Assembly (NCBI GenBank): GCA_963789835.1
Contig: CAWBMF010000003.1
Coordinates: 441,068-505,067, forward strand
Origin: an uncultured delta proteobacterium
Lineage (GTDB): Bacteria; Desulfobacterota; Binatia; Binatales; Binataceae
Length of the DNA: 64,000 nucleotides
Direction of reading: 5' to 3'
Shown here: positions 1,524 through 57,127 of the stretch, piece by piece
Layout of the letters: the number at the start of each line of letters is the position of its first letter
Position numbering within the stretch: position 1 is the stretch's first letter
Position numbers and translations under genes: made by a program
Notes under the pieces: model-generated
What the model was told of the DNA's origin: nothing
Databases searched by the model: none
What the model saw: the letters and a program-made list of their open reading frames with translations, nothing else

Positions 1524-2076
1524 GCCGTCTTTTCTACAAATTCGATTCTTTACGTGCGCGTAACTAATGTCGCGTGCCGCCACTCGCGTCTGGAAAGCGC
1601 GGAGGCGGAAAACCGAACTGATGGGAGCCTTGAGATGCAGAGGAATTCATTGGTGCGGATCTCAACTGCGACGATCCTGATTCAACTGGGTTTTCCCATG
1701 CCAACAACGAGCGCCCTTCGCCGCTACCAGCAGCAGTGACGCTTCTTAAAGGTGATGTTTCGTCACGATCGGCGTCTCTAACCGTGTCTCAGGATCGACA
1801 AATGGCTTGGGTAACCCTTATGACGGTCATCATCGGCTCGACGGTCTTGGCGGTCGCGGTGGCCGCCATCTTATTCTACTCGTGTGCGGGCGAAAAATTT
1901 CTAAGGCAAATATCTGTGGCTGATGGTGCAGCCGTTCACTGCGAATGCGATCCCAATCCACAGCCTGGCTGTTCACCTTGAGGGGATTTATCCCGCCAAA
2001 AATAACCAGGATGAATTTCAAAACGCAGACTTACGTGAACTAGTCCAACTACCAAGCGATAATTCGTGCCAACTTA

Positions 2077-2934: not shown

Positions 2935-3016
2935 GTCTCGCACACTGCGCGGCTCGCGTTTGAACCACAACCTCAAACTATCCATGAAAAGACGAAACTT
3001 CTTGAAGTAGTTAACG

Positions 3017-4771
3017 ATGAATACAGATCTAGTGACAGACAAAACCGACGAGCGCAGTCCCACCTCAGATAGGTTCGATCGCGTTTTCTGGAAACGCTTT
3101 TGGCGATTGATCCGCCCGTATTGGACATCGGAAAGACGGCGGTCGGCCTTCGTGCTGGTTTCGGCAATGACGGTGCTGAATCTCGGCACGGTCGGGATGC
3201 AAGCGGTTTTCAGCTACGTGTCGCGCGACGTGATGAACGCGCTGCAAGCGAAAGACGCCGCACGGTTTCATCATCTCCTGGTGCTATTCGCGCTTTGGAT
3301 CGTGGTGTTCGTGCCCATCGCTGCCTTTTATCCATACTTAAGCGGGCTCCTCAGCATCGACTGGCGCGACTGGATGACAGAAAAATTTGTCAAAGGCATG
3401 CTGCAGGGCAACGCGCTTTACTACATCATGCGCGATCGTACGGTCGACAATCCCGACCAGCGGATCAGCGAAGACGTCAATAGCTTCACGAGCGGTGCGC
3501 TTACCTACTCGATGACCGTGCTGCAGGCGATCGTAACTGCAATCGCGTTTTTTGGAATCTTGTGGGAGATCTCGCGTTGGCTCGCCGTAAGCTTGATCGG
3601 CTATTCGCTGGTCGGCAGCTGGCTGGCCATCGTCATCGGACGCCGTCTGATAGTTATCAACTTCAATCAGCAACGGTTCGAAGCGGACTATCGGTTCGGA
3701 TTGGTCCACGCGCGCGACAATGCCGAAGCGATCGCGCTCTACGACGGCGCGCGCGATGAAGCTCATCAGCTAGGGCGGCGCTTTGCGAGGGTGGTCAACA
3801 ATTACAAGCTGCTCATTTTGTGGCAGCGTCATCTGACGCTCTTTACAGCCGCCTACGACAACGCGGCCAACCTCGTCCCATATTTCGTTTTGGCCGGCGC
3901 CTACTTTTCCGGACGTTTTGCGCTGGGCGAATTTACCCAAGCGGCGTATGCGTTTTCGATTCTGCAGAGTTCGATGGCGCTGGTTGTCGATCAATTCCAG
4001 GCACTTACCGACTACGCATCGGTGGTTAATCGTCTGTCGGTTTTCGAGGAGTCCTGTGAAAAGGCAGCCAGCAAGCAAAGCGATGGCGAGCAGCAAATCG
4101 AGGTAGCGGAAGATGACTCACAGATTGCGCTTAAGAACATCACCCTGGCGACGCCGGATCGCGCGCGCGTTTTGCAGCAGGATGTTTCACTTGCGGTCGC
4201 CCGTAGAGACTCTCTGCTGATCACCGGTCCGACCGGTGCGGGCAAGACCTCGCTCATGAGGGCTGTCGCGGGCCTATGGAGAGCCGGTAGCGGGGGAATC
4301 TTGCGGCCGTCGCCGAATCATATCCTGTTCATGCCACAAAAGCCTTATTTGATCCTGGGTTCGATTCGCCAACAGATTCAATATCCAAGGGCCGACGCGG
4401 TCAGCGACGAAACTCTCATGGAAGTGCTGCGCGAAGTCGACCTTGCCTATCTCCCCGGCCGGTTCGGCGGTCTCGACGCCGAGCTCAACTGGGCCGACTT
4501 GCTGTCGGGGGGCGAGCAGCAGCGTCTGGCCTTCGCGCGGCTCCTGCTCAGTCGACCGCGCTTTGCAATTCTCGACGAGGCAACCAGCGCTCTCGATATT
4601 GCTTCTGAAGAGCGCTTGTACTCGCGGCTTGCGAGCCTGCCCATCGCCTTTATCAGCATCGGGCACCGGCCAAGCCTGCGCAAATTCCATAACCGGGTGA
4701 TCGAGCTGTCCCTTGGCTCCGAGTCGCCGATCGAGATCGTCGGATGCGCCACTAACGAGTCCTCATCCTGA
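3017..4771 (+). CDS. fused ABC transporter permease/ATP-binding protein (ABCD / SbmA-BacA-like, ABC_membrane_2 type)
   Basis: N-terminal TM domain contains the NPDQRISEDV motif. C-terminal NBD has Walker A (GPTGAGKTS), the ABC signature LSGGEQQRLAFARLL and Walker B (ILDEATSALD). Confidence 0.8.
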   Translation: MNTDLVTDKTDERSPTSDRFDRVFWKRFWRLIRPYWTSERRRSAFVLVSAMTVLNLGTVGMQAVFSYVSRDVMNALQAKDAARFHHLLVLFALWIVVFVPIAAFYPYLSGLLSIDWRDWMTEKFVKGMLQGNALYYIMRDRTVDNPDQRISEDVNSFTSGALTYSMTVLQAIVTAIAFFGILWEISRWLAVSLIGYSLVGSWLAIVIGRRLIVINFNQQRFEADYRFGLVHARDNAEAIALYDGARDEAHQLGRRFARVVNNYKLLILWQRHLTLFTAAYDNAANLVPYFVLAGAYFSGRFALGEFTQAAYAFSILQSSMALVVDQFQALTDYASVVNRLSVFEESCEKAASKQSDGEQQIEVAEDDSQIALKNITLATPDRARVLQQDVSLAVARRDSLLITGPTGAGKTSLMRAVAGLWRAGSGGILRPSPNHILFMPQKPYLILGSIRQQIQYPRADAVSDETLMEVLREVDLAYLPGRFGGLDAELNWADLLSGGEQQRLAFARLLLSRPRFAILDEATSALDIASEERLYSRLASLPIAFISIGHRPSLRKFHNRVIELSLGSESPIEIVGCATNESSS

Positions 4772-4844
4772 TGCAATCGGGAAAAGAATCCTGGTGAGAG
4801 AGAACCATGCTTCCGGCTTGATCGCGCCCTCCTCGCCTCCAGAG

Positions 4845-5444
4845 TCAGCTGGGCGGTTGCTTATCCGGTGCCGCATCTCCGTCAAGCAAGCGCTGCAAAT
4901 GGCTGGAGGGAGATTCGTGCGCGGCGTGGCCGTCGTGCCCGGTATTCAAAGCGCAGGCCGGCGTGACGTGAGTCTGCGGCGGCTTGAACTCTGTGGGCAA
5001 CAAACGCTCGCGGGCTGCCCACTGATCGAAATTGCCGGGAGCGCTCGCCAGCAGGCGAAATCGCATACAGACAGTGTTGCAGCCACAACCGGAATCGCAA
5101 TTTCCGTGGAGCTCGCCGGGTGACTTGACGATCAGATCAAGTGGCCGCGTCTTACCGGGAAAGATGTCCACCGCGTCTTTCATTCCAGAAATCCAAAAGC
5201 TGTGGATCACGTCGGCGGAGGCGAGTTCAAGCCGCACATTCGTAGCAGTGGGAAGGTACAGTACATCGCTGGTCTTGATGCCGAGCGACGGGTAATCGAA
5301 TTCCCACCACCACTGATGCGCGACCGCCTTGACCGTGAGCGCAGGCCGGCTGTCGCCATCGACGATTCGAGCGACAGAGATCACTCCGGCGCAGATGCAC
5401 GCCAGACCGACGAGGGCTGCCACGAATGGCAAGGACGATTTCAT
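4845..5444 (-). CDS. cytochrome c oxidase subunit II-like cupredoxin domain protein (single N-terminal TM/signal, divergent CuA motif)
   Basis: HQWWWEFDYP and DVIHSFWIS match the COX2 cupredoxin core. Metal-site region reads HGNCDSGCGCNTVCM, where canonical COX2 reads CxExCGxxHxxM. Start overlaps the upstream SCO gene stop (ATGA). Confidence 0.6.
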   Translation of the reverse strand: MKSSLPFVAALVGLACICAGVISVARIVDGDSRPALTVKAVAHQWWWEFDYPSLGIKTSDVLYLPTATNVRLELASADVIHSFWISGMKDAVDIFPGKTRPLDLIVKSPGELHGNCDSGCGCNTVCMRFRLLASAPGNFDQWAARERLLPTEFKPPQTHVTPACALNTGHDGHAAHESPSSHLQRLLDGDAAPDKQPPS

Positions 5445-6172
5445 GCGCGCGCCGCCTGAAAGATAAGCGCTATGATGGCGCCGTCGGCGGCCGCAACCGG
5501 CTCGTGATCTACAGCCTTCTCGACGTCGCTCGCGACGCGGTCCGGCTCGGCCTTCTCGCCCATGTACTGCAGCAATGCTTTGCCGTTCGCATCGACCAGG
5601 AAGAACTCGAGAACATGATCGACGGTGCCGTCCGCTTCGTGCTTTCGAATCAGATCGAAATGCGCCATCACATCGTCGATCTGTTTTGGCGTTCCCGTAA
5701 GAAACAGCCAGCCATTAACGTCGGCGCCTTGTGCCTTCGCGTATGCGTTCAGCTGTGTAGGTTGATCGTGTTCGGGATCAACCGTGATCGACACGATGCG
5801 CGCTTCCGTTCCAAGCTTGGGCCCGAGTCGATTGGCAATCTGCTTCATCCGGCTCGTGAGGACGAGGCACGGTCCCGGACAGGTGGTGTAGATGAAATCG
5901 AACAGCACGGGTTTGCCCTTCAGCGAGGCCAGGGAAACGTTGTGGCCGTTCTGATCGACCAGCGTGATATCGGGCAAGCAGTCGGAGGCGTCGCGCACCT
6001 CGAATCCTCCACGCTCGCCGATGTCTGGTGCCTCTTGAGCCTGCTGGCGGCAACCAGTCAGCGTCACCGCGCCAACGAGCGTGATCAGCAGCGTCAGAAA
6101 TAAGCTTTTCCTGATTGACGAAACGGTTCGAGTAGAATTCATGGTACTTCTTTTTTTAATTCTCGCCGGCAT
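5441..6172 (-). CDS. SCO1/SenC-family copper chaperone/thiol-disulfide protein (lipoprotein)
   Basis: Thioredoxin-like fold with FIYTTCPGPC (CxxxC) and a downstream His. N-terminal lipobox LTGC. Alternative start MNSTR at ~6142 would remove the overlap with the upstream gene. Confidence 0.75.
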   Translation of the reverse strand: MPARIKKRSTMNSTRTVSSIRKSLFLTLLITLVGAVTLTGCRQQAQEAPDIGERGGFEVRDASDCLPDITLVDQNGHNVSLASLKGKPVLFDFIYTTCPGPCLVLTSRMKQIANRLGPKLGTEARIVSITVDPEHDQPTQLNAYAKAQGADVNGWLFLTGTPKQIDDVMAHFDLIRKHEADGTVDHVLEFFLVDANGKALLQYMGEKAEPDRVASDVEKAVDHEPVAAADGAIIALIFQAARA

Positions 6173-6620
6173 AATTTCTTCGGAGCGCCTCGCGTATCTG
6201 TTCGACCGGCGAGCCCTGCTCCGACAGTTGCTCCGCCATCAACGCCTCTCCGACGCAGATTTCGCACACCGAGGCGTGGGTGCCTCGATAACAATCGAGC
6301 AGATTCTGATGGCCGTAGGTCTTGTCGCATCCGCAATAGCAATGGAGTTGAGCGAGCAGCGCGGGATTCTTCTCCGCGACCTGGTACGCCTGCTTTACCG
6401 GACCGACGTACTGGTTAGGATCGAGCGTCAAGCGCCCCTGCGATCCGCTAGTGGCAACCGTTCCTGCAGTCGCCCGGCCCGCGCAGCAGCAATGGCCCCC
6501 AATGCACATCGCGCCGCGCGCACCGCCATTGTCCGCGATTGAGGCGCCGAACGCTGACCAGAGAAATGCCACTACCAGAACGGCCGCGGCCGAGGAGCCT
6601 AAAATAATTGCTCGCTTCAT
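6156..6620 (-). CDS. PCYCGC-motif protein (PF13798-like) with Cys-rich N-terminal segment
   Basis: HCYCGCDKTYGHQNLLDCY... motif. Signal/TM segment followed by CIGGHCCCAGR. Confidence 0.6.
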   Translation of the reverse strand: MKRAIILGSSAAAVLVVAFLWSAFGASIADNGGARGAMCIGGHCCCAGRATAGTVATSGSQGRLTLDPNQYVGPVKQAYQVAEKNPALLAQLHCYCGCDKTYGHQNLLDCYRGTHASVCEICVGEALMAEQLSEQGSPVEQIREALRRNYAGEN

Positions 6621-6630
6621 TCCGGCACTC

Positions 6631-7275
6631 TCAACTATGGCTCAGAGTTTTCTTAACGTCGTCGACGATGTCCTGCGCCTTGACGATCTGACCGTTGTAT
6701 TCTCGCACCAGCCGCCCATCCGGTCCAATCAGCATCATATTGACCAGGTGGCCGACCGAACCGTCCGGCTCGATTTCCCGGCTCAGCTTGAATCCGGCCA
6801 GCGCCTGATCGATGTCGCCGGGACCTCCGGTCAGGAAATACCATCCCTTCTCATCCGCCCCTTGCTGACGGGAGTAGTCGAGCAATTGCTTGGGCCCGTC
6901 ATGCTCGGGATCGACGGTGATCGAAACGAGCGTCACCTTCGATCCGAGATCGCTGCCGAGCCGCAGCGCGACGTTCGCAAATTTTGCCGTTTCCATCAGG
7001 CACGGTCCCGGGCATGACGTGTAGATGAAATCCACCACCAGTGGTTTGCCCTTGAGTGATGAGAGCTCAACCGTATTGCCATTCTGATCGACCAGCTTGG
7101 TGTCGGTGAGGACACTAGCGGGGCCATTCACGGTTGAGCCGCTGTGGCATCCAGCCGCTGTAAATAAGCTCGAAGCTACGGCCAGCACGATGCCGAGAGA
7201 TCTAAGATTGAAACTAATATTACTCATATCTGTCTCCGTCAAAAGCTGTAACTCAAGATCGTTTTGATCGCGCAA
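6631..7275 (-). CDS. SCO1/SenC-family protein (second copy)
   Basis: FIYTSCPGPC CxxxC motif. Paralogous to 5441..6172 (VDQNGxxVxLxSLKGKPxxxDFIYTxCPGPC). Confidence 0.75.
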   Translation of the reverse strand: MRDQNDLELQLLTETDMSNISFNLRSLGIVLAVASSLFTAAGCHSGSTVNGPASVLTDTKLVDQNGNTVELSSLKGKPLVVDFIYTSCPGPCLMETAKFANVALRLGSDLGSKVTLVSITVDPEHDGPKQLLDYSRQQGADEKGWYFLTGGPGDIDQALAGFKLSREIEPDGSVGHLVNMMLIGPDGRLVREYNGQIVKAQDIVDDVKKTLSHS

Positions 7276-7297
7276 GGCGCCACCAATACTCGCGGCT

Positions 7298-7672
7298 TCA
7301 TGGCGTCAGCGACCACGTCAGGACCGGGAGGGGGACCTTCCGATCGAGTGCTTCGGCGTTCTCATACATGGTGCGATCGTCCTCAGCGAGGGTCTCTCTT
7401 GCTTGATTCGAGTTGGCCACGCATTGAGACACATCGCGCTTGAAATACAGTGACTGGATTTCCAGCGGAGAGAGCGCGCCGAGAGGCATCACGACGTTGC
7501 TGGTTACAGCGTCGTCGCTCATCGCCGCTTCTTCGATGCACTTATCCTCGTTTTGATCGAGGCGCTGCTCAGCCTGTTCGAGGTTACTCTTTGCCGCGAC
7601 CGAGTTGTCCGGAGTTTGCGTTGCACAGCCGACGAGAAGAATCGCGATAATGGCGAAGACTCTCATCTTCAA
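7298..7672 (-). CDS. hypothetical lipoprotein
   Basis: Signal peptide plus lipobox (LLVGC). Acidic, coiled protein. Translationally coupled with the upstream TlpA gene (overlap at 7669-7672). Confidence 0.45.
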   Translation of the reverse strand: MKMRVFAIIAILLVGCATQTPDNSVAAKSNLEQAEQRLDQNEDKCIEEAAMSDDAVTSNVVMPLGALSPLEIQSLYFKRDVSQCVANSNQARETLAEDDRTMYENAEALDRKVPLPVLTWSLTP

Positions 7673-8103
7673 TGTCCCTGGCCCGCGTCGTGGGACGCCG
7701 CTCGTTCAGACAATAACGGCAGGACGGCCTTGCTCAGGCTTTGCTCAGTCAGAGGAGTTTCGTCGGGGGTCAGCTTAGCGCGAACAATACCCTGCTCGTC
7801 GACGATGTAAGTGATGGGGAGTTCGGTAGGATCGTTGAAGCCGTTGGATTCGCAATCGCGCAACATCGCTGCCGGGTAAGCGAAGGACTCCATCGTCTTG
7901 GCAACATCCGACCGTTCGTGCAGCCGATTAGCCGCCAGACCGATCATCTCGAGTCCCTTGTCGTGATAGCGTCGATAGAACGCGTCGAGCGTCGGCATTT
8001 CCGCCTGGCACGGAGGGCACCAAGTGGCCCAGAAGTTGACTACGACCACCTTTCCGCGTTGTGCGGCGAGATCAAAGGATTGGCCGTTCAACTCCTGGAC
8101 CAC
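7669..8103 (-). CDS. TlpA/ResA-like thiol-disulfide oxidoreductase (thioredoxin fold); N-terminus probably extends upstream
   Basis: VVNFWATWCPPCQAEMP motif. ORF track starts at a GTG (8101-8103). The same frame stays open up to ~8217 and encodes a signal-like NALAALVLLTISFAATSAC, but has no canonical start codon. Confidence 0.65.
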   Translation of the reverse strand: MVQELNGQSFDLAAQRGKVVVVNFWATWCPPCQAEMPTLDAFYRRYHDKGLEMIGLAANRLHERSDVAKTMESFAYPAAMLRDCESNGFNDPTELPITYIVDEQGIVRAKLTPDETPLTEQSLSKAVLPLLSERAASHDAGQGH

Positions 8104-8223
8104 AAGTGCCGGCGCCGCCTGGCCGATTTCTGCTCCGCCGAAAGCCTCGCACGCACTCGTAGCCGCAAACGAGATTGTCAGAAGAACGAGCGCCGCGAGT
8201 GCATTGCCGCATCTCGATCACCT

Positions 8224-9195
8224 TCAGAAGCTATAGCTGACGATCGTTTTGATCGCGTAAGGCGCCGACAACTGGTAGCCGTTCATGTTGCGAAATATCG
8301 GCAGCTCGACATCTGAGTACCACCTAATCGACTTGTACGCCGTCTCAAGACCAGGAGCGACTTGTATTCTGAAGTAACCACTATCGTGGGGATCTGAATT
8401 TGTCCCGCGGTCGTGGTTCCGGTCGCTGACCAGAAACGTCAGGAACGGCGCAAATTCCGTGAGATAACTGACCTTACCGAAATCGTAGTACGTCCCATAG
8501 CCTCCGTCGAACTCGTGGCCGGGCTTGTAATGGTCCTGATACGCGAACGGCTGATCCCACATGCCTTGCGCATAGTAGCCAAAGGGGCGATCTTCCAATT
8601 TCAGTATCGGAAGAGTGCCCATGTGGTAAGCGCCTATCAGCAGGTCGGTGCTGCCCGTTCCGATCTGAGTGTCACGATCCCACGGCGGGTAGTGCCAGTT
8701 GCCCGACGGAACCTTGAAACCGGCCAAGACACCGGTCGACATATCCTCCTGCAAGCCCGTCCACATGCCCAATATGCGGATGTCGCCTATCGAGTTCGAG
8801 TCGTACGACTTCACGTCATCGTTGTCGCCATTGTAGGCGCCTCGATAATTCCTCTCCCAGTAGGGCACTTCCAGCATCACGCCCCAGCTCCGATTGAACA
8901 TGTATTGCCCGCCGACGGTAACAAAGTTGGTCGCCAACTTCTTGTCGTTGTTGTACTGCCCCGAGGCTGGCCCCGTTGCGTGCCAGTTTATGTACTGGTT
9001 CATGAAGTCGTACTCGATCCACGCCATCGCACCAGCGCCCATAGGAAGCAGTGAGGGCGTCGCGACTTCGAACACCCCACATCCGCATGCGCACGCCCGA
9101 ACCATGCCAGGCGTTAGCCCCACAAATAGAACGGCGGCGACCAACAAGCGTCGAGCCGCGTTGGACAAAAGCACAAACTCAGAAATCCGTCTCAT
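8224..9195 (-). CDS. putative outer-membrane beta-barrel protein
   Basis: Signal peptide, Gly/Tyr/aromatic-rich alternating sequence and C-terminal ...IVSYSF (terminal Phe). Unusual N-terminal MRACACGCGVFE Cys cluster. Confidence 0.5.
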   Translation of the reverse strand: MRRISEFVLLSNAARRLLVAAVLFVGLTPGMVRACACGCGVFEVATPSLLPMGAGAMAWIEYDFMNQYINWHATGPASGQYNNDKKLATNFVTVGGQYMFNRSWGVMLEVPYWERNYRGAYNGDNDDVKSYDSNSIGDIRILGMWTGLQEDMSTGVLAGFKVPSGNWHYPPWDRDTQIGTGSTDLLIGAYHMGTLPILKLEDRPFGYYAQGMWDQPFAYQDHYKPGHEFDGGYGTYYDFGKVSYLTEFAPFLTFLVSDRNHDRGTNSDPHDSGYFRIQVAPGLETAYKSIRWYSDVELPIFRNMNGYQLSAPYAIKTIVSYSF

Positions 9196-9349
9196 CTAAC
9201 CTTCCCCCGGCGAACACCTAGTGGCGCGCCGTTACCTGAACGAAAAGCCTCGCGCCCTGATGCTCGTAACATCGGGCGCTCAAATCGGATTGCTTGTCGA
9301 ACGAAGCTTTTAGACTGAGTGCTTAGGGGGAGGAGTATCGGGAGCGACC

Positions 9350-9625
9350 TTAAAATCGATCGATTGCACCGATTTTGTCACGGTGGTCGAGCCCAGGTCG
9401 AAAAGAGCGAACTCTGGTAGAACTGTCGCTGGACGGGCAAGCAACATGTTCTGAGACCTGATCGAACATTTGAAGCGGCTGGCAAATGTTAACGGTCAGT
9501 TCTGGATGGCTCGGTCCGGAGACAATCACGAACCCAGCAGTCGAGGGAGCGCTTCCCAAGAACAACACGATCGCTAAGATTAAACTCAACGCCCGTAGGT
9601 CAGCCTTTGAAAACAAGCCCCGCAT
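9350..9625 (-). CDS. small membrane/secreted protein (paralog of 10675..11031), partner of DUF2318 gene
   Basis: MRGLFSKADLRALSLILAIVLFLGSAPSTAGFVIVSGPSHPELTVNICQPLQMFD. Near-identical N-terminal half to the 10675..11031 product. Confidence 0.4.
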   Translation of the reverse strand: MRGLFSKADLRALSLILAIVLFLGSAPSTAGFVIVSGPSHPELTVNICQPLQMFDQVSEHVACPSSDSSTRVRSFRPGLDHRDKIGAIDRF

Positions 9626-32436: not shown

Positions 32437-33589
32437 CATCTGGCCCTCCAAGCTCGCAGGTCGAAGCACGATTCAGGTGAATTGTGACTTACTCGTATAC
32501 AACCTGGAAATCAGACCTTGGTCCGATAGAAACCGACTACGCCACTCGGCAAATATCGTGCGGGCACTCATACAGAGAGCAGCCTTATCTTCTCTCGAGC
32601 GGGAGCCGACAAGACGGAAGGACAATTGATCCCATGAAAAAGTCGATGATGATCAGCTCTTTAGTCGCTCGGAAGCGGCAGCGTATCTCAAGAATAAGAC
32701 TACTACGTCGACGCGAAGGCCGTTCTTTACCATTGATACTCGCGGTCGCAATAATCGCGTTTACGACGCCGACGGGCTACTCGTTCGGCGCAGATCAACC
32801 TGGCGCTGCATCGACTGAACCCGGACCGGCTCCGGGGGCTGCTACCCAGAAAGAACTGGAGGAGCTGGTCTCGCCGATAGCACTGTATCCGGACTTATTG
32901 GTTGCCCGAATCCTGGCGGCCTCGACCTATCCAAATCAAGTCGTCGAGGCGCATGAGTGGCTGCAACAAAACAAGAACCTTTCGCACGAACAGCTAGCGG
33001 CGCAAGTGAATGCGCAATCCTGGGATCCCAGCATCAAATCGTTGGCACAGTTTTCTCCGGTGCTACAAACGATGAGCGACAGCTTGGCATGGACTTCGGC
33101 GCTCGGGGAAGCATACTTCAACCAGCCTGACGATGTTATGGAGGCGATTCAGGCATTGCGCAGTCGAGCGATCGAAGCTGGAACCCTCAAGACTACGGCA
33201 CAACAAAAGGTCGAAGTTCAACCCGCAGCCCCACCTGCATCATCGGCAGGCGAGGCGACAGCCCGTCGCACAGCAGCAAACAGTAGTCATTCAGCCAGCC
33301 CAACAAAACGTCGTGTATGCGCCCCAATACGACCCCGCGACAGCCTACGGAGCTCCCGTGCAAGAACCCGCCGGATATACCGGGACCGAGATGTTGACGA
33401 CTGGGTTGTTGTCCTTCGGAGCCGGGATGGCGCTGGGGGCACTTATCAACGAAGACGACGATGATTGGGACTGCGATTGGTCTGATGGTGGCGGCTCGGT
33501 TCATTACAACAACAATGTTTACGTTTCCAATTCGCCGATCCCACCAGCAGGGGGCAACTATCCAGCAAGACCTCCGGCTGCAAACCGTC

Positions 33590-33775
33590 CGGGAGGAGTC
33601 GGCGGGCCAGGCGGTGCGGGCGGCCCTGGCGGAATCGGCGGGCCCGGGGCGGTCGGTAGACCCGGTGGAGTTGGCGGGCCTGGCGGTGTGGGCGGCGCTG
33701 GGGGAGTTGGCGGCCCTGGCGGTGTCGGGGGCCCAGGGGGAATCGGCAGGCCTGGAGGAGTTGGCGGAAGTCCTC
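33590..33775 (+). repeat. imperfect tandem repeats (period ~15-18 nt) encoding GGVGGPGG units
   Basis: ggagtcggcgggccaggcggtgcgggcggccctggcggaatcggcgggcccggggcggtcggtagacccggtggagttggcgggcctggcggtgtgggcggcgctggggga... Confidence 0.6.
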
Positions 33776-34164
33776 GACCTAACCCCGTCCGCGGAACGAG
33801 TTCCCCCAGCAGGATTTCAGGACCATCTACTCGGCCATATAATCCATCAAAGGCCAGGCCGTACGCTGGCGTAAATCCGAACGTAACTAAGCCGACCTTC
33901 CCAGCGGCCAGCACTCTTCCTAACAATCCGGGACTCGGGAACTCGAACGGAAATCTTGCGCAAAACCAGCCCATGCGAAATGGGAATGCGTCAGCGCAGT
34001 CAGCTAATAGGATGGCATCTAACCGACCCGCAACAGCGAATCGCGCCAACAATCAGATGCGAGGGTTTGGCAACGGTTCTGATTCGAAGGGCGGACGCAA
34101 CGGCGCATTCGGTGGCTATCAGCCCGGTGGAAGAGCTCAAGCCTCGAGCAATCGTGGAAGGGCC

Positions 34165-34282
34165 AGCCTCGGCGGAGGCGGGTCCGGCGGGCGCGGTGGA
34201 GGTGGTGGCCGGGGCGGCGGCGGTGGCCGAGGTGGTCGAGGTGGCGGTGGTGGCCGCGGCGGAGGCGGTGGACGACGACGCT
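34165..34282 (+). repeat. GGY/CGN repeat tract encoding (G5R)n tail
   Basis: ggcggaggcgggtccggcgggcgcggtggaggtggtggccggggcggcggcggtggccgaggtggtcgaggtggcggtggtggccgcggcggaggcggtgg. Confidence 0.6.
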
Positions 34283-34361
34283 AGTCGGCGATCCGGGCCG
34301 CTCCCGAGGCTCCTTCGCAATCGGAACGTGTTAGAGGAACCCGAATCAACAGAGATTAACG

Positions 34362-35396: not shown

Positions 35397-37076
35397 TTGA
35401 TAAGAAGTACGTCGCTGAGAAGCACCGACCTCCTCGCAGGCGTGGCTGTCGCGGCGGTCGCAATTCCGACCGGGCTTGCCTACGCTGAATTGGCCGGATT
35501 TCCCCCGGTCGTAGGACTCTACGCTAGCATTCTTCCTCTGATCGCGTATGCAATCGTCGGCTCGTCGCCACAGCTCATTGTAGGTCCTGATGCGGCGACT
35601 TGCGCGTTGGTTGCCGCCTCGCTCGAACCCTTGGCTGGTGGAAATCCACAACATTACTTGGACCTCTCGATCACTCTTTCCATTCTGGTCGGAGCTTTTT
35701 GCATTGTCGGCGGGCTGTTACGCCTGGGCGTGATTGCGAATTTTCTCTCGCGCCCAGTCCTAATCGGCTTTCTCAATGGTATAGCGTTGACCATAGTTAG
35801 CGGCCAGCTCGGAAAGTTGTGCGGATTTGCAGTGCGCACTGACGCGGGTCTCTTCCTGCGAACTGCAGATTTCATCCGGAAGCTCCCACAGACCCACTTC
35901 CCGACTTTGATCGTGGGAATCGTCACGCTCTTACTTATCTACGTGATGGGGAGACTCGTTCCCCGTCTGCCCAGCGCGCTGGTAGGCATCTGCGGTGGAA
36001 TTGCAATGATGACGCTGCTGGACTCGGAGAAATGGGCAGTGCCAACGTTGGGCGCGGTTCCAGCGGGATTCTTGAAGCCTCACTTGCCGGCGCACTTTCT
36101 TTCTGATGCCGTCCATCTTTCACCGGACGCAGCCGGCATCGCTCTGATTTGCTTCTGCAGTTCTATGGTAACGGCAAAGAGCTTTGCAATACGGAATAAG
36201 TACGAAGTCGCTGCAGATCAAGAATTCCTGGCGCTGGGTCTGGCAAATGTCGTGGCAGGTCTTTCGAGCGGCTTCGCGATTGCGGGTGCGGATTCGCGCA
36301 CGGCTATCAACGATACTACCGGCGGCCGGTCGCAGGTGAGCGGACTAACAGCTGCCCTTGTCATGACATTGGTCCTTACAGCTTGTACGGGCCCGCTCTC
36401 ATATATTCCGACTGCTTCGCTAGGTGCTGTTCTAGTCCTGGCGGGTGCGTCGCTTTTCGACTTTCAGACTGTGTGGAAGATGCGTGATATTAGTCGATCG
36501 GAATTTGGGCTTTCCCTTATCGCGACCTTTGGTGTCGCAACAATCGGAGTGCTGCCGGGAATTGCGCTGAGCGTGATCGTCAGCCTCGTTCTTCTCCTAA
36601 GGCGCGCCTCGAGTCCGTACGACGCGATCCTTGGACAGGTTCCCGGCGTGGATGGATTTACGGACATAAGCGAATACCCGAATGCACAAACCATCTCAGG
36701 GCTCTTGGTCTACCGCTTTGACGCGGCGATCTTGTTCTTCAATGCTGATTACTTCAGAAAGCGCGTTCGCGATGTAGTAGCTTTGTCCGATCACTCCTTA
36801 CGACTTTTTGTATTCGACATGGAGGCGATAAACGTTCTCGATATGGCCGGATTAGACGCCATAGAGGAGATTCGATCAGACCTGGCCGCAAGAGGAATCG
36901 CTTTCGCAGTGGCGCGCGCGAAGAACGAGATTCGGGACAAGCTGATCCGCTCAGGTCTGTGGGAGCGAATTGGCGCCACGAACTTCCATCCGTCGGTCAG
37001 GAGTGCGGTACAATCCGGATTGAATCCAGCCACTAGAAGTAGCGAGGGTCGCCAACCGCGGGCAGATTTTATCTGA
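35397..37076 (+). CDS. SulP-family inorganic anion (sulfate/bicarbonate) transporter with C-terminal STAS domain
   Basis: AYAELAGFPPVVGLYASILPLIAYAIVGSSPQLIVGPDAAT (SulP signature). ~10 TM helices. STAS-like C-terminus. Confidence 0.75.
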   Translation: MIRSTSLRSTDLLAGVAVAAVAIPTGLAYAELAGFPPVVGLYASILPLIAYAIVGSSPQLIVGPDAATCALVAASLEPLAGGNPQHYLDLSITLSILVGAFCIVGGLLRLGVIANFLSRPVLIGFLNGIALTIVSGQLGKLCGFAVRTDAGLFLRTADFIRKLPQTHFPTLIVGIVTLLLIYVMGRLVPRLPSALVGICGGIAMMTLLDSEKWAVPTLGAVPAGFLKPHLPAHFLSDAVHLSPDAAGIALICFCSSMVTAKSFAIRNKYEVAADQEFLALGLANVVAGLSSGFAIAGADSRTAINDTTGGRSQVSGLTAALVMTLVLTACTGPLSYIPTASLGAVLVLAGASLFDFQTVWKMRDISRSEFGLSLIATFGVATIGVLPGIALSVIVSLVLLLRRASSPYDAILGQVPGVDGFTDISEYPNAQTISGLLVYRFDAAILFFNADYFRKRVRDVVALSDHSLRLFVFDMEAINVLDMAGLDAIEEIRSDLAARGIAFAVARAKNEIRDKLIRSGLWERIGATNFHPSVRSAVQSGLNPATRSSEGRQPRADFI

Positions 37077-37560
37077 AAGCAACACCTCTTGATTAGCTCA
37101 ACGGCTGATGCGGTTTGGGTGTGGATTGCAGGAGGTCGGCTCCGACACCGGTGACTTTGAGGACCGAGCCAGTATCGTTCGACGCCAAACTGCCTCTCGG
37201 CGCAGAGGGATTGTCTTCATTGATCAGTTCCATCGCGCTGACAGTTGACGATGACTGGGCGCCTGATACTAACAAGGCCAAGGTCGGCGATGCGTTCACG
37301 CACGGCATCACGTTGTGCGCGGACGGCGTCCCAGGAATGGCTTTCCCTGCACTGCCCGAGGTACACGTGGACGATCGCGTGAGCGCTGCGTTTGCAAACT
37401 GCCGCGATGGGCCAAAGCGTGCACGCCCCAGTTTGGATACCCTGATCCGATGCCTTCGTAAGTACGTCGAGAGCAATCCTAGAAGGTTTAGAATTGTCGA
37501 GAACAGCGGAAAATCGCATCGGATCTGTATCGTCATGCTTCGCGATCCGGTTGAACCTTT

Positions 37561-37764
37561 GTGAGACTCGCGTTTTATGGACGCTTCAGCTCCGACAATC
37601 AAAGGGAAACCTCAATCGCCGACCAACTGCGCATAGTGCAAAGATGGTCGCATCAACACGGACATAAGATCATTTCCGAGTTCTCGGATGAGGCCACGTC
37701 CGGAGCCAATTTGAAGTTGCTGTTGGGGCTTCAAAGGGCACTTGATGCGGCACACCCGAGTTAG
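37561..37764 (+). pseudogene. N-terminal remnant of a serine recombinase (resolvase/integrase)
   Basis: MRLAFYGRFSSDNQRETSIADQLRIVQRWSHQHGHKIISEFSDEATSGAN matches the catalytic N-terminus of serine recombinases (YxRVSTxxQ...SIxxQ). Only 67 codons before a stop. Confidence 0.45.
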
Positions 37765-37817
37765 CATCCAACCAACCACGGGCGGACTGCTCGAGACAGG
37801 TAAGGTGCTCGGTTTGA

Positions 37818-37834
37818 TGGTTGCGGGGCAAGGG
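37818..37834. mobile_element. att-like direct repeat of the tRNA-Met 3' end (remnant integration scar)
   Basis: tggttgcggggcaaggg at 37818-37834 versus tggttgcgggggaagga at 38055-38071 (15-16 of 17 identical). The recombinase remnant lies immediately to the left. Confidence 0.4.
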
Positions 37835-38054
37835 CTCGAGATGCCGATCTCGGGCGAAACGTGAAAATCTGGCTCGCTAGACGGTCGACCTGACCCCTGC
37901 CAGGGAGGCGAGTCTAGCGTCTATGCTTTTTCTCAATTACGCCCAAAACTCAACCTCTCGACCTGCCTTTTTCGCAGACTTGCAAGATTCTTCGCCTTGC
38001 AGTTTAGTGCGAAGCCGCAAGCTCGATCGCAGAACTGCGTGAAGTAGGGACTAT

Positions 38055-38131
38055 TGGTTGCGGGGGAAGGATTTGAACCTTCGACCTCCGGGTTATGAGC
38101 CCGGCGAGCTACCAGACTGCTCCACCCCGCC
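38055..38131 (-). tRNA. tRNA-Met (anticodon CAT), initiator-like (three G-C pairs in anticodon stem)
   Basis: Reverse complement folds as ...GCGGGG-TG-GAGCAGTCTGGTAGCTC-GCCGGGCTCATAACCCGGAG-GTCGAAGGTTCAAATCCTTC-CCCCGCA-ACCA. Very similar to E. coli tRNA-fMet. Confidence 0.8.
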
Positions 38132-38258
38132 TCGGCAGTGTATCTGCCGCTTGGTCAGCCGGTCAACATCGAAGGCGTAAAATGCGCGCGGGCGTGTGAA
38201 TGCGACGATCGCGCAGCCGCGCCTGCAATCGCTGCGCGGACGCGAATCAAATCTGAAA

Positions 38259-38448
38259 TTAGCCGGCGAGAATCCGGATGTTGCAGTCGCGATGCGCCTT
38301 GCCGAACTCGATGATTTCTTTTTCGAGCTTGGTCGCATCGGGTTTGGCGTCGGTGAGCATCAACTGCTTGGCGACGGCGTTGTCGACTCCGTCGGCTTCG
38401 ACATCAACGTTGTGATCGTCACAGATAATAAATGCCATCTGGTTAAAA
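38259..38448 (-). CDS. hypothetical small protein (62 aa)
   Basis: MAFIICDDHNVDVEADGVDNAVAKQLMLTDAKPDATKLEKEIIEFGKAHRDCNIRILAG. Sits inside a longer, implausible ORF. Weak call. Confidence 0.3.
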
Positions 38449-38565
38449 GCACCTCGAACGAACCAAACTATAAGATTTTTTCGCCGAATTGAACCGCACT
38501 CGCGAGACGCAATTTGTGCTAGTCGTGATTGAAAGACGAAAAGCGCAAACGCGGGAGTCGATGCA

Positions 38566-39723
38566 ATGAGCCTCAAGGGAAAAGCCGCGGCGATTGGAAT
38601 CGGAGAACTCAAACCGTTCAAGGAGCACGGCGACCTCACCGCGCTCGGCTTGATGGCGCGCGTGTCGGCCGAAGCGATCGCGGACGCGGGATTGGAGAAG
38701 AAAGACATCGACGGCTTCCTGGTCGGCGTGCCGTATTCCGATCCGGGCATGATTTACCCGGCCAGCGCGGCTGAGGTGCTGGGACTCAACACGCGGATGC
38801 TGAATCAGGTCGATATCGGCGGCGCCAGTGCCGCCGGAATGATCTGGCGCGCGGCCGCCGCGATCGACGCAGGTATGTGCAGCGCAGTGCTGTGCCTCGT
38901 CGCCGATCTGAACAAGGTCGGCGACCAGCGCCCGCCAGTCATCTCGGTGCAGCGCGAGTTCGAGGCGCCGTATGGAAATATCGGCGCGAACTGCGGCTAC
39001 GCGATGATCGCGCATCGCCATATGTACGAATACGGAACCACGGCGCGGCAGATGGCGAAGGTCGCGGTCGATCAGCGGACCAACGCGCTTAAGAATCCGC
39101 TGGCGACGTTCAACGACAAGCCGCTCACGATCGACGACGTGCTGAACTCGCGCATGATCGTCGACCCGCTGCATCTATATGAAATCGTCAGCCCGGTGAG
39201 CGGCGGCGCAGCGATAATCGTCGCGTCGCCCGAAGTGGCGAAGCGTTCCAAGAATCCGCCGATTTGGCTGCTGGGCGCGGGCGAGTACGCCAACCATTCG
39301 ACCATCACGTACGCGCCGTCGATCACCACCTCGCCGATCAAGGTCGCCGCCGAGAATGCTTTCAAGATGGCCGGCCTGCAGCCGAAAGACATGGACCTCG
39401 TGTGCCCGTACGACTGCTACACGATTACGGTGATCGTCACGCTCGAGGATGCGGGCTTCTGCAAGAAGGGGGAGGGCGGTCCGTTCGTGATGGAGCACGA
39501 CCTGACGTACGCGGGCGATTTTCCGTGCAACACGCACGGCGGGCAATTGTCGTTCGGCCAGCCGGGCCTGGCGGGCGGCATGAGTCACGTGACGGAAGGG
39601 ATAAGACAGTTGATGGGGCGCGGCGGCGAGCGCCAGGTCAAAAACGCGGCGCTCGGCTACGTCAACGGCAACGGCGGAATCATGAGCGAGCAGGCAAGTC
39701 TCATTCTGGAGCGCAAATCATGA
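38566..39723 (+). CDS. thiolase-like / SCP-x-type lipid-transfer protein (acetyl-CoA C-acyltransferase family)
   Basis: Thiolase-fold N-terminus KAAAIGIGELKPF...; catalytic-region C-terminus NTHGGQLSFGQPGLAGGMSHVTEGIRQLMGRGG. Confidence 0.7.
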   Translation: MSLKGKAAAIGIGELKPFKEHGDLTALGLMARVSAEAIADAGLEKKDIDGFLVGVPYSDPGMIYPASAAEVLGLNTRMLNQVDIGGASAAGMIWRAAAAIDAGMCSAVLCLVADLNKVGDQRPPVISVQREFEAPYGNIGANCGYAMIAHRHMYEYGTTARQMAKVAVDQRTNALKNPLATFNDKPLTIDDVLNSRMIVDPLHLYEIVSPVSGGAAIIVASPEVAKRSKNPPIWLLGAGEYANHSTITYAPSITTSPIKVAAENAFKMAGLQPKDMDLVCPYDCYTITVIVTLEDAGFCKKGEGGPFVMEHDLTYAGDFPCNTHGGQLSFGQPGLAGGMSHVTEGIRQLMGRGGERQVKNAALGYVNGNGGIMSEQASLILERKS

Positions 39724-56363: not shown

Positions 56364-56435
56364 GCCGATGTAGCTCAACGGTAGAGCACCTGATTTGTAA
56401 TCAGGTGGTTGCGAGTTCGATTCTCGCCATCGGCT
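56364..56435 (+). tRNA. tRNA-Thr (anticodon TGT)
   Basis: GCCGATGTAGCTCAACGGTAGAGCACCTGATTTGTAATCAGGTGGTTGCGAGTTCGATTCTCGCCATCGGCT. Cloverleaf with loop TTTGTAA. Confidence 0.75.
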
Positions 56436-56459
56436 TGGTCGGCATTTTTGCCTTCGGAG

Positions 56460-56545
56460 GGAGAGGTTCCCGAGTGGACAAAGGGAGCAGACTGTAAATC
56501 TGCCGGCTTATGCCTTCGAAGGTTCGAATCCTTCCCTCTCCACCA
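56460..56545 (+). tRNA. tRNA-Tyr (anticodon GTA), long variable arm, CCA encoded
   Basis: GGAGAGGTTCCCGAGTGGACAAAGGGAGCAGACTGTAAATCTGC...GGTTCGAATCCTTCCCTCTCCACCA. Near-identical core to E. coli tRNA-Tyr. Confidence 0.8.
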
Positions 56546-56571
56546 GTATGATATTTGGATCGACGGGAAGA

Positions 56572-56647
56572 GCGGGAGTAGCTCAGTTGGTAGAGCGCGA
56601 GCCTTCCAAGCTCGGGGTCGCGGGTTCGAGTCCCGTCTCCCGCTCCA
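56572..56647 (+). tRNA. tRNA-Gly (anticodon TCC)
   Basis: GCGGGAGTAGCTCAGTTGGTAGAGCGCGAGCCTTCCAAGCTCGGGGTCGCGGGTTCGAGTCCCGTCTCCCGCTCCA. Confidence 0.8.
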
Positions 56648-56727
56648 GAGTTTTCGCGATGACTAGAGGCAGCGAGTTTTGCGAGGCGTTTTTTACTGAG
56701 AGATTCCGGTTGAGCGGCGCATCGGAG

Positions 56728-56803
<76 letters not shown>

Positions 56804-56853
56804 AGTTTTGAGCGCCGGCTGAGCGGCGCAGGAATTTTTTCGAGGCTATTACA

Positions 56854-57009
56854 ATGAGAGATCTGATTTCACTTTCGTGCGACACCTGCAAGTCGCGCAA
56901 CTACACGACCAGCAAGAACAAGAAGACGCAGACCGACAAATTTTCGATCAAGAAATTCTGTCCGCGATGCCGCTCGCATACCGTGCACAAAGAAGGGAAA
57001 ATTACCTGA
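56854..57009 (+). CDS. rpmG: 50S ribosomal protein L33
   Basis: [51 protein letters not shown]: 51 aa with a C4 zinc ribbon. Below the 60-aa cutoff of the ORF track. Confidence 0.8.
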
Positions 57010-57050
57010 TCATTGTATATGCGGTGCGCAACACGCTTGCCTGAACAGAC

Positions 57051-57127
57051 GGGTCAGTAGCTCCAATTGGCAGAGCATCGGACTCCAAATCCGAGGGTTC
57101 CAGGTTCGACCCCTGGCTGGCCCGCCA
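57051..57127 (+). tRNA. tRNA-Trp (anticodon CCA)
   Basis: GGGTCAGTAGCTCCAATTGGCAGAGCATCGGACTCCAAATCCGAGGGTTCCAGGTTCGACCCCTGGCTGGCCCGCCA. Confidence 0.8.

Follow-up and report, generated by a model that had tools for sequence, protein, structure and literature searches.

How did the fragment of a serine recombinase gene and a short copy of a tRNA 3' end come to lie beside a live tRNA-Met gene, and how much of the adjoining DNA belongs with them? The question is raised by a stretch of 64,000 nucleotides (the window) from a Candidatus Binatus species. The first-pass annotation had seen here a decayed integration site at tRNA-Met, and this is borne out, both a recombinase remnant and an att-derived repeat being present. 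Positions 37379-38131 are very probably the tRNA-proximal end of a genomic island that a large serine recombinase (LSR) integrated into the initiator tRNA-Met gene. The relic itself is ordinary; the integrase family is little studied and has a reading frame that enters the tRNA gene. The locus is a further case of a known but seldom documented kind of element. The features are, in window coordinates:

607-646, plus strand: candidate attL, consisting of trailer, att core TGGTTGCGGG-GG and then CCCGAAAAACGCAAACAGTCCACC (core match, P' arm, GC boundary)
623-37817, no strand: probable recombinase-borne island body (E1), 37.2 kb, GC 0.566 (GC, absence in sister species)
37379-37564, plus strand: small ORF, about 61 aa if the start is the GTG at 37379; its stop overlaps the recombinase start (GTGA)
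37561-37752, plus strand: LSR N-terminal remnant, codons 1-64, with the catalytic-serine motif YGRFSSDNQ (Pfam Resolvase; 94% identity to L023)
37753-37864, plus strand: LSR C-terminal remnant, codons about 530-567 plus stop, out of frame with the N-terminal piece
37818-37865, plus strand: decayed tRNA-fMet 3' half, att core TGGTTGCGGG-GC plus the former T-arm to the anticodon loop; includes the 17-nt repeat
37866-38054, no strand: spacer of about 190 nt from the old displaced tRNA half to the live tRNA, probable remnant of a second insertion (E2)
38055-38131, minus strand: live tRNA-Met(CAT) of the initiator type, the integration target (ARAGORN; Rfam RF00005, 63 bits)

The recombinase relic was read against the intact 567-aa LSRs at the equivalent locus in other Binataceae, chiefly that of locus L023 in a related genome. 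The 67-codon ORF (37561-37764, plus strand) has significant recombinase similarity: it matches Pfam Resolvase PF00239 at E 6.8e-8 and 33.2 bits (cut-off 23.3) over profile positions 2-61 of 145, and 64 of its residues are 94% identical to the N-terminus of the L023 protein. The first-pass annotation thus named the right family for its stub, but more than the N-terminus survives. A tblastn search with the L023 LSR recovers residues 530-567 at 37742-37855 (71% identity), and in blastn 37753-38034 aligns with L023 9158-9440. The two copies share their flanks too, in keeping with orthology. Between the pieces, at 37752/37753, lies a deletion junction with GCA microhomology, where 1406 bp are missing relative to L023 and with them codons 65-529; the N-terminal ORF continues past the junction to its stop at 37764. 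The intact L023 protein carries Resolvase, Recombinase (PF07508, E 3.5e-19) and Zn_ribbon_recom (zinc beta-ribbon PF13408, E 8.3e-9) domains and matches the phrog_95 integrase. Both of the latter domains are missing from the window copy. Since they have been deleted, the window holds a pseudogene of an LSR family member, not a member itself, and this copy cannot be active. The dN/dS of the N-terminal remnant against L023 is 0.04, and among intact relatives it is 0.10-0.17, which indicates selection. A word-indexed protein search with the 67-aa stub gave no match; an exhaustive HMMER search is needed to find homologues.

The arrangement is no assembly artefact, since the relic is found in two other assemblies of the species: the 1182-nt stretch between SulP and the next gene recurs in two same-species contigs from other samples, which are 99.4-99.6% identical to the window over 20 kb. 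Upstream of the recombinase, the small ORF at 37379-37564 has no Pfam or PHROG match. It is kept upstream of nearly all LSR family members, with the motif L.TL[IV][RQ]CL[RH][KR]YVE.NP.RF, and the homology of the window to other elements starts within it, at about 37405-37412.

The tRNA-Met gene had been placed on the minus strand at 38055-38131, and ARAGORN and Rfam agree. Positions 1 and 72 form a G1:A72 mismatch and the anticodon stem is closed by three G:C pairs, features which we take, by textbook criteria, to mark it as initiator tRNA-fMet. It adjoins a conserved small58-thiolase-DUF35 cluster in 70 Binataceae loci, and an Rfam scan of 36500-38600 showed no family besides tRNA. The att core in the live gene is formed by its 3'-terminal 12 nt, at 38055-38066 in plus-strand coordinates. 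The 17-nt repeat survives careful alignment: 37818-37834 (TGGTTGCGGGGCAAGGG) and 38055-38071 (TGGTTGCGGGGGAAGGA) are identical at 15 of 17 positions, the first 11 exactly. This 11-mer, TGGTTGCGGGG, occurs three times in the window, always on the plus strand (607, 37818 and 38055), with 0 copies expected from 100 shuffles. The repeat is thus att-derived as proposed, but it is no separate scar: it sits within the C-terminal codons of the recombinase (GLMVAGQGLE), and 37818-37865 as a whole reads as the last 15 codons of that gene, MVAGQGLEMPISGET followed by the stop. The objection that a repeat inside a gene could not be att-derived was dropped once the overlap of gene and att site throughout the family had been seen.

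In this LSR family the proteins end in VAGAGFEPATFGL and a stop, encoded by the tRNA-fMet 3' half in antisense; the last 14 or so codons are tRNA antisense, with the stop TGA in the anticodon loop. Among 80 metagenome loci, the ORF overlaps a complete tRNA-fMet by 44 nt in 12 (plus three cut by contig ends), a tail with a tRNA half ending at the anticodon loop is found in 24, the palindromic attP form in seven and the Binatus form, as in the window, in another seven. An equal overlap is present in cultured Loktanella, Sphingobium and Paracoccus, where the LSRs are only about 30% identical. Members of the clade come from Binatota, from many soil metagenomes and from cultured Alphaproteobacteria; phage and plasmid collections held no relative at or above 35% identity, only lower ones.

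The att sites can be read directly in Ensifer adhaerens, where strain E-60 has an empty site and Casida A a 29.3-kb element; set side by side, the two define attB, attL and attR, which share the core TGGTTGCGGGGGC. This common core comprises 13 nt at the tRNA 3' terminus. The reconstructed attP, ATCGGTGGTTGCGGG-GG-CCCGCAACCACCGAT, is a palindrome with 15-bp arms that lies inside the LSR gene, and the seven metagenome loci bear the same palindrome. GG would be the crossover dinucleotide. The crossover was mapped in a relative of about 30% identity, outside the Binatus clade, and in the tail arm of the window the centre is now GC, no longer GG. An alternative in which the crossover falls in the anticodon loop and the tRNA 3' half comes entirely from the element was ruled out by the Ensifer triple and its terminal 13-nt core. 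It had seemed favoured, as in 24 loci the tRNA half stops at precisely that point with T-stem complementarity kept; these anticodon-loop breaks are attributed to other, later insertions.

From these comparative data the recombination activity of the clade may be deduced as follows. The recombinase gene lies at the extreme end of its element, preceded by the small coupled ORF, and attP is contained in its own 3' coding end, with about 15 bp per arm around the central GG. One arm equals the last 10 nt of the tRNA (TGGTTGCGGG), and recombination with the tRNA-fMet 3' terminus would take place over a common core of 12-13 nt. Once integrated, the element would have the tRNA body on one side and the old tRNA tip with its trailer on the other. 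Its LSR gene would then continue into the tRNA 3' half, in antisense, as far as a TGA in the anticodon loop.

How far does the element extend to the left? The first-pass annotation had regarded it as deleted or eroded, with the hypothetical gene and the SulP/DUF3300 region as possible residual cargo. The recombinase is indeed broken and the genes to the left do lie in inserted DNA, but the element is still there, and it probably stretches over 37.2 kb, beyond the SulP/DUF3300 region alone. A search for a further att repeat in this direction was successful: 607-618 is an exact 12-nt match to the tRNA 3' end in direct orientation, and the CCCGAAAAACGCAAACAGTCCACC that follows it is an imperfect inverted copy of the recombinase-tail arm. 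At 619-642 this P' arm agrees in 16 of 24 positions with the palindrome that the P arm of the window predicts, a level that 6e-5 of the 24-mers in the window reach. The architecture of the site agrees with the proven attL of Ensifer, and homology to locus L179 stops 7 nt before the core. The GC content also behaves as anticipated, being 0.62-0.63 outside and only 0.57 inside (0.566 within the island, against 0.63 on the MarR side and 0.617 to the right of the tRNA), with a boundary that coincides with the 607 site. The core copy at 607 is therefore probably the far end of the recombinase element and the partner of 37818, and the island would measure roughly 37-39 kb overall.

Related genomes with an empty site exist as well. 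In L002, L003, L004 and L030, the four closest-related species that share the flank, the nitroreductase stop lies 17-27 nt from the tRNA, and in the window species the distance is about 39.5 kb on one contig. Only searches with genes beyond MarR brought the empty site to light. In no genome found does the MarR block directly abut the tRNA; its close homologues lie in the same island or in an unrelated context, so sequence logic and GC are what links 607 to 37818. Since the MarR block is extra relative to L002 and in a different context in L179, the inserted DNA is composite. A comparison of window positions 1-2100 with all loci by blastn and tblastx returned nothing. The right flank of the tRNA is conserved in 42-80 species, and of 70 species nearly all have a different left flank. 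Flexible DNA gained by horizontal transfer, not core chromosome, makes up at least 38 kb of the window (1-38054).

By Pfam, the cargo comprises BacA, an ABC transporter, SCO1/COX2-like copper proteins, very large secreted proteins, a vWA protein, an L,D-transpeptidase, a two-component system, PPK2, DUF3300, DUF2950 and SulP; the small ORF and the dead recombinase form the right end. The DUF3300 gene shows an apparent frameshift at 33.1-33.5 kb. A Pfam scan of the larger ORFs in the 37-kb body showed no phage genes, conjugation genes or other recombinase. Because the integrase is dead, the segment is now immobilised as far as its own enzyme is concerned, and its excision as a circle is unlikely.

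This extent is open to a competing account, which we regard as unlikely though worth serious attention: the recombinase element may measure only about 2 kb (small ORF, LSR and att), with the 37 kb to its left being unrelated DNA, from an older island or from flexible chromosome, and the 607 core left by a different, older event. Such a compact element would agree with the homology of the window to intact Binatus-clade loci, which is confined to 37405-38054, the leftward DNA differing from locus to locus. It would also agree with locus L008, which has PPK2 and SulP beside the tRNA and no LSR, and with the LSR-less attL-like scars in L052 and L058. Tycheposons, in addition, provide a well-described precedent for the tRNA-proximal accretion of successive elements (10.1101/2020.12.28.424599). 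On the other hand, the GC content is uniformly low exactly from 607 to 37818, no further core copy occurs between these positions, and the P' arm at 607 fits the tail arm of this very LSR. Elements of 29 kb and of more than 45 kb are known in the family; no distal repeat was detected within 49 kb in the Sphingobium or Loktanella elements.

Starting again from the island of about 37 kb, one may ask whether the LSR was its integrase at all. A tyrosine integrase, now lost or located elsewhere, could have targeted the tRNA, with the LSR travelling as cargo (a resolvase or invertase) at the end. Tyrosine integrases are overwhelmingly the enzymes for which tRNA genes are targets; a 2020 survey found serine integrases at tRNA genes in 14 candidates among 297 elements and noted that "experimental proof will be required" (PMC7192596). 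The many loci with a tRNA half ending at the anticodon loop also recall a classical sublocation of tyrosine integrases. Nevertheless, we consider this explanation quite improbable. The overlap of gene and att is kept across phyla down to about 30% protein identity, and the attP palindrome around a non-palindromic dinucleotide, with 13 nt in common with attB, is as in LSR systems. The L023 protein has a complete LSR architecture, and none of the 24 larger ORFs scanned at 2-40 kb of the window, nor any of the L023 ORFs scanned, matched Phage_integrase (PF00589). Finally, the only recombinase encoded by the inducible phage phiPam-6 is of the serine family (PMC3925955).

A single small element between the tRNA (attL) and the 37818 repeat (attR), since deleted to about 220 nt with the stub as its leftover, is scarcely credible. 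The tRNA 3'-end direct repeat at 220 nt from the tRNA invites it, and in L039 a perfect 40-nt duplicate does flank a 1.75-kb remnant. Yet it is already contradicted by the anatomy of the gene: the stub lies on the far side of the repeat, the repeat is within the recombinase's own conserved frame in every family member, and both gene ends are present, so the repeat never split the gene. The recombinase sits outside the 220-nt interval from repeat to tRNA, and the element runs leftward. That the repeat arose by coincidence and that the ORF is a spurious resolvase-like frame, as the shortness of the repeat (15/17) and the weak window-internal similarity beyond the first 11 nt (16/36) might suggest, is refuted by the three 11-mer copies against none in the shuffles, the 94% identity to an intact orthologue at the same locus and the family tails, which are exact tRNA antisense.

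For the island integrated by its LSR, it remains to account for the spacer, as the dead LSR, although located at the tRNA-proximal end, stops 190 nt from the tRNA 3' end. Its probable source is a second insertion, of later date and with its crossover at the anticodon loop, of which it would be the remnant. The spacer can be aligned at 70-82% with the corresponding spacer in intact-LSR loci, and its tRNA-proximal 55 nt or so are the only part common to the LSR-less loci L014 and L019; no Rfam family matches 37866-38054. The intact Binatus-clade LSRs likewise lie 200 nt from the tRNA yet are under selection, which the picture of a displaced and stranded gene leaves unexplained.

The following order of events can be proposed. 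An element of about 37 kb would have integrated at tRNA-fMet, leaving attL at 607-646 and, as attR, the recombinase tail with its core at 37818. A later insertion, crossing over at the anticodon loop, would have given the tRNA a fresh 3' half and moved the old half, together with the recombinase joined to it, to a distance of about 200 nt, before being almost wholly lost itself. The displaced tRNA half would then have drifted in sequence, and the 1.4-kb microhomology deletion would finally have taken out recombinase codons 65-529 and, with them, the self-mobility of the island. Two sublocations of one tRNA, its 3' tip and its anticodon loop, would thus have served as targets, which would explain the layered scars.

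Serine integrases had been thought to avoid tRNA genes, and here an LSR clade targets the initiator tRNA gene with an att logic that is legible from the sequence, the core being 13 nt long and the palindromic attP lying inside the integrase gene. With the crossover inside the coding sequence of the integrase itself, integration would swap its last 10-20 residues: the free element would encode ...VAGARNH... and the integrated one VAGAGFEPATFGL. It could be imagined, quite speculatively, that this tail swap is a built-in sensor of the integration state. If so, it could tune directionality, stability or expression, possibly together with the coupled ORF of about 60 aa. A non-exhaustive literature search found no paper describing a tail swap in this recombinase clade. 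As the tRNA-fMet 3' tip is present in essentially all bacteria, the clade could serve as a broad-host integration tool, and the culturable hosts (Ensifer, Sphingobium and Paracoccus) make the system directly testable.

Among known systems, phiPam-6 (vB_PamS_Pami6) of Paracoccus aminophilus is an inducible phage with a serine recombinase that resides in tRNA-Met, flanked by a 17-bp direct repeat, CCCTCCTCCGCTACCAT, of the tRNA 3' end (PMC3925955; PMC6536676). It shares with the window a serine-family recombinase, a tRNA-Met(CAT) target and a short direct repeat of the tRNA 3' terminus. However, it is a complete siphovirus in an alphaproteobacterium, whereas the copy in the window is dead, belongs to Binatota and comes with non-phage cargo. 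The phiPam-6 repeat indicates a different, apparently elongator-type tRNA-Met, and an overlap of recombinase ORF and tRNA is not described in the phiPam-6 papers. An anatomy equal to that of the present family is found in elements of Ensifer adhaerens (pCasidaAB), Sphingobium sp. RAC03 (pBSY17_1), Loktanella salsilacus (plas2) and Paracoccus versutus (pTAV4). There the LSR is the last gene, with the 44-nt overlap with the tRNA-fMet 3' half and TGA in the anticodon loop; these enzymes, about 30% identical to the Binatus-clade family, are intact and directly abut the live tRNA. The Sphingobium element carries conjugation genes. In RefSeq these alphaproteobacterial LSRs are labelled just "recombinase family protein".

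Anticodon-loop and T-loop sublocations of tyrosine integrases in tRNA genes were reportedly described by Williams in 2002. Islands of the P4 type, which use such integrases, resemble the present one in their insertion into the 3' part of a tRNA gene that is restored from an element-borne copy, the integrase beside the tRNA, the tRNA 3'-end direct repeat at the far end, and tandem accretion and decay. They differ in enzyme family and chemistry, and the present family has a 12-13-nt core and a dinucleotide-centred attP palindrome, with no Phage_integrase domain found. The tycheposons of Prochlorococcus, where 27 of 937 elements carry an LSR (10.1101/2020.12.28.424599), are similar as hypervariable islands at specific tRNAs, with repeated integration that leaves degraded integrases and partial tRNAs. 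They occur in another host phylum and mostly use tyrosine recombinases, and no replication module is evident in the window island.

The 3' end of a tRNA-Ser gene is the target of phiRSM-type recombinases. These small serine recombinases act as site-specific integrases of their integrative element (PMC7192596). They are small "S-core" enzymes on filamentous phages, without the Recombinase and zinc-ribbon domains. SCCmec islands, mobilised by the LSRs of the Ccr type, insert at the 3' end of a conserved gene with direct repeats of about 15-18 bp and accrete in tandem; their target is rlmH, and the ccr genes are internal to the element. In the family described here, unlike SCC, the target is a tRNA and the LSR gene lies at the element end. 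In the integration-dependent immunity of mycobacteriophages, which employs a tyrosine integrase, attP is located inside the repressor gene and integration alters the C-terminus of that protein. In the LSR family, by contrast, the gene that spans attP is that of the integrase itself.

The recombinase ORF beside tRNA-Met is almost certainly the remnant of an internally deleted gene for a large serine recombinase (LSR), and the nearby tRNA repeat is derived from an attachment (att) site. Three features define the locus.

38055-38131, minus strand: tRNA-Met(CAT), called by ARAGORN, with which Rfam agrees
37561-37764: recombinase ORF, Pfam Resolvase match above the curated cut-off (E 6.8e-8)
37379-37564: small ORF of about 60 aa, whose stop overlaps the recombinase start

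Two species (L023 and L028) and seven metagenome contigs have an intact gene of 563-567 codons at exactly the site of the relic. The 567-aa product of L023 contains, in a domain scan, Resolvase, Recombinase and Zn_ribbon_recom domains, and the intact recombinase matches the PHROG integrase family phrog_95. Its residues 1-64 are matched at 37561-37752 (94% identity) and its residues 530-567 at 37742-37855 (71%) in a different frame, while DNA alignments place the deletion junction between 37752 and 37753, with 1406 bp absent and a GCA microhomology. Two separate matches and a mapped break thus make the gene an internally deleted pseudogene. The first-pass annotation had described the tRNA, the repeat and the ORF as a decayed integration site with an N-terminal recombinase stub. 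The site, its three components and their serine-recombinase origin hold up, but the stub reading is ruled out, since C-terminal residues are also retained. Likewise, the repeat (37818-37834 against 38055-38071, 15 of 17 positions equal, the first 11 exact) is att-derived as proposed, but it is not separate from the gene: it sits within the retained C-terminal codons, in a tail ending ...GLMVAGQGLEMPISGET and a stop.

An identical relic is found in two further assemblies of the same species (99.4-99.6% identity across 20 kb). The dN/dS of the N-terminal piece against L023 is 0.04, as compared to 0.10-0.17 among intact relatives, which makes the deletion comparatively recent. A Binatus-clade copy in L147 (1001-2700), frameshifted and with 15 in-frame stops, represents a second, independent decay of this gene. 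In L023 the island is a mobile-element pile-up: left of the intact recombinase, 1622-6673 also encodes another large serine recombinase with a DUF2924 partner, and an IS transposase that has rve domains.

The stop/start overlap couples translation of the small ORF to that of the recombinase. It is kept across the recombinase family, preceding the LSR at most of 80 metagenome loci (L081-L160), and shares the motif L.TLVQCLRRYVEANPSRF. It has no match in Pfam or PHROG and may serve as an accessory or directionality factor.

In an exhaustive HMMER search, the tails of relatives were found to end ...MVAGAGFEPATFGL, the peptide obtained by translating a tRNA-fMet 3' half in reverse complement. The 80 metagenome loci were sorted by what follows this tail.

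12 loci (and 3 cut by a contig end): complete tRNA-fMet, overlapped over 44 nt by the ORF, with the stop TGA in the anticodon loop
24 loci: tail, then half a tRNA ending exactly at the anticodon loop, then diverse DNA
7 loci: tail entering the palindrome TGGTTGCGGG-GG-CCCGCAACCA
7 loci, window-like and of the Binatus clade: drifted tRNA-like part, complete tRNA about 200 nt further on

The same 44-nt overlap occurs with recombinases, about 30% identical, of cultured Loktanella, Sphingobium and Paracoccus; in Sphingobium the gene ends an ICE-like region. In L123 (47-200) the last 20 or so tail codons (...QVFGVVAGEGFEPSTSGL and a stop) lead straight into a complete Binatus-type tRNA-fMet; the remainder of that gene is absent and a different LSR adjoins divergently. 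In L115, inverted attP-like palindromes (715-736 and 5323-5344) surround a 4.6-kb segment with the recombinase at its end, and L116 has a second, directly oriented copy 4.7 kb away (5605 and 10363). Possible explanations are a segment that inverts, elements arranged in tandem, or circular forms that were assembled.

The crossover was mapped by comparing Ensifer adhaerens E-60, with an empty site (attB), to strain Casida A, whose element measures 29.3 kb. In attB, terminator and trailer are followed by TGGTTGCGGGGGC and next by AGGATTTGAACC...; at the left junction the attB trailer and core lead into CCGCAACCACCGATACCGAC, and the right junction runs from recombinase tail through core to the remaining tRNA. 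By this comparison, the common core is formed by the last 13 nt of the tRNA gene. An anticodon-loop crossover for the LSR, favoured at first, is ruled out by it. The reconstructed element site (attP) is a perfect palindrome with 15-bp arms and a GG centre, exactly the palindrome of the seven metagenome loci. Given this core and this attP, integration changes the enzyme tail from ...VAGARNH... to ...VAGAGFEPATFGL. On pCasidaAB (L166/L168), the targeted tRNA-fMet adjoins ribosomal-operon-like sequence: 2.5 kb past it matches hundreds of replicons, and tRNA-Ala comes next. This setting makes several target copies per genome probable.

For the 24 half-tRNA loci, two readings fit best: recombinase ends may have been displaced by later insertions crossing over in the anticodon loop, or elements may have integrated into halves already displaced. 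The window arrangement would be an aged form of these loci, and the chances are even that the spacer between repeat and tRNA is what remains of a second insertion. Displacing insertions of this kind occur in Binataceae, as indicated by L039, where the tRNA 3' half recurs over 40 nt without a mismatch (6783-6822), 1.75 kb from the tRNA (8574-8650). The 1.75 kb hold nothing but small hypothetical ORFs and lack an integrase; here too an insertion of the anticodon-loop type has decayed. About 1 kb from the tRNA, L052 (7809) and L058 (7232) have attL-like scars (duplicated trailer, TGGTTGCGGGGG, then CCTGCAAC) without any recombinase gene.

The window tRNA has a G1:A72 mismatch and an anticodon stem closed by three G:C pairs, which by established criteria are the marks of a bacterial initiator tRNA. 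When species-representative genomes were scanned with the adjacent thiolase, 80 loci came up, all from Candidatus Binatus or Binataceae MAGs (81-97% protein identity). The genes to the right (58-aa protein, thiolase, DUF35, DUF1614, ICMT, type III PKS) and the tRNA are kept in 42-80 of the 80, and those to the left in almost none; GC steps up at the tRNA, being 0.54-0.60 to its left and 0.60-0.65 to its right. Between 54000 and 58000 GC dips a second time (0.55-0.58), in coincidence with a Thr-Tyr-Gly-Thr-Trp tRNA cluster (56364-57127). Among the 80 loci (L001-L080), the CCA end is gene-encoded in some Binataceae, including the window, and not in others, to which L023 and the other intact-LSR loci belong; past 3'-end replacement by elements may explain this.

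The genes that this species has past the left end (XseB, TlyA, ROK, LysM, DUF2231, SDR, ECH, Rce1, nitroreductase) directly abut the tRNA in L002, L003, L004 and L030, with the nitroreductase stop 17-27 nt from the tRNA 3' end (17 nt in L002); the first three are among the highest thiolase identities (95-96%). Here, on one contig, they are about 39.5 kb away, and in other species 1-5 kb of different DNA intervenes. Therefore, the whole left flank, from the window's left edge to 38054, is very confidently regarded as inserted DNA. The core 11-mer has three window copies where none is expected, all direct, at 607, 37818 and 38055. At 16 positions, the 24 nt after the copy at 607 agree with the window's own recombinase-tail arm in reverse complement, and at least 16 of 24 is reached by only 6e-5 of window 24-mers. 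This order, core then arm-like sequence, is that of the Ensifer attL, and 607 is rather likely to be the attL that pairs with the recombinase tail in one single element of 37 kb. Between the core copies GC is 0.566, as against 0.617 right of the tRNA and 0.63 in the 10 kb beyond 607 (from same-species contigs). The cargo suspected by the first-pass annotation to the left is thereby confirmed, and the insertion-free relatives, deviating GC and farther att repeat it had proposed to look for are all found.

The inserted DNA is composite. At this site L002 also lacks a short MarR block; the block is located elsewhere in L179, where homology ends 7 nt before the 607 core. A Pfam scan of the larger ORFs in the 37-kb body detected no mobility gene besides the recombinase. 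In L008, from another species, PPK2 and SulP homologues (5241-9398; 80% and 74% aa identity) adjoin tRNA-fMet without a recombinase module, the SulP end about 100 nt away: either a related island minus its integrase or an independent acquisition. The DUF3300 gene (32484-34284) is split into overlapping ORFs (32484-33464 and 33133-34284); being a single 549-aa gene in same-species contigs L181/L182, its frameshift is window-specific, by either mutation or sequencing error.

The relic itself is ordinary; the recombinase family to which it led is of moderate interest and open to direct tests in culturable hosts. No description was found of a serine integrase that targets an initiator tRNA or has an ORF spanning attP, which is weak evidence, as the literature coverage is incomplete. 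Tycheposons offer a general model for tRNA-proximal island growth (10.1101/2020.12.28.424599). A 2020 survey of 297 elements reported 14 in which a serine integrase uses a t(m)RNA gene, a use termed previously unreported and needing proof (PMC7192596). In Paracoccus, the inducible phage phiPam-6 has a serine-recombinase gene and is located at tRNA-Met, between 17-bp repeats that correspond to the tRNA 3' end (PMC3925955; PMC6536676).
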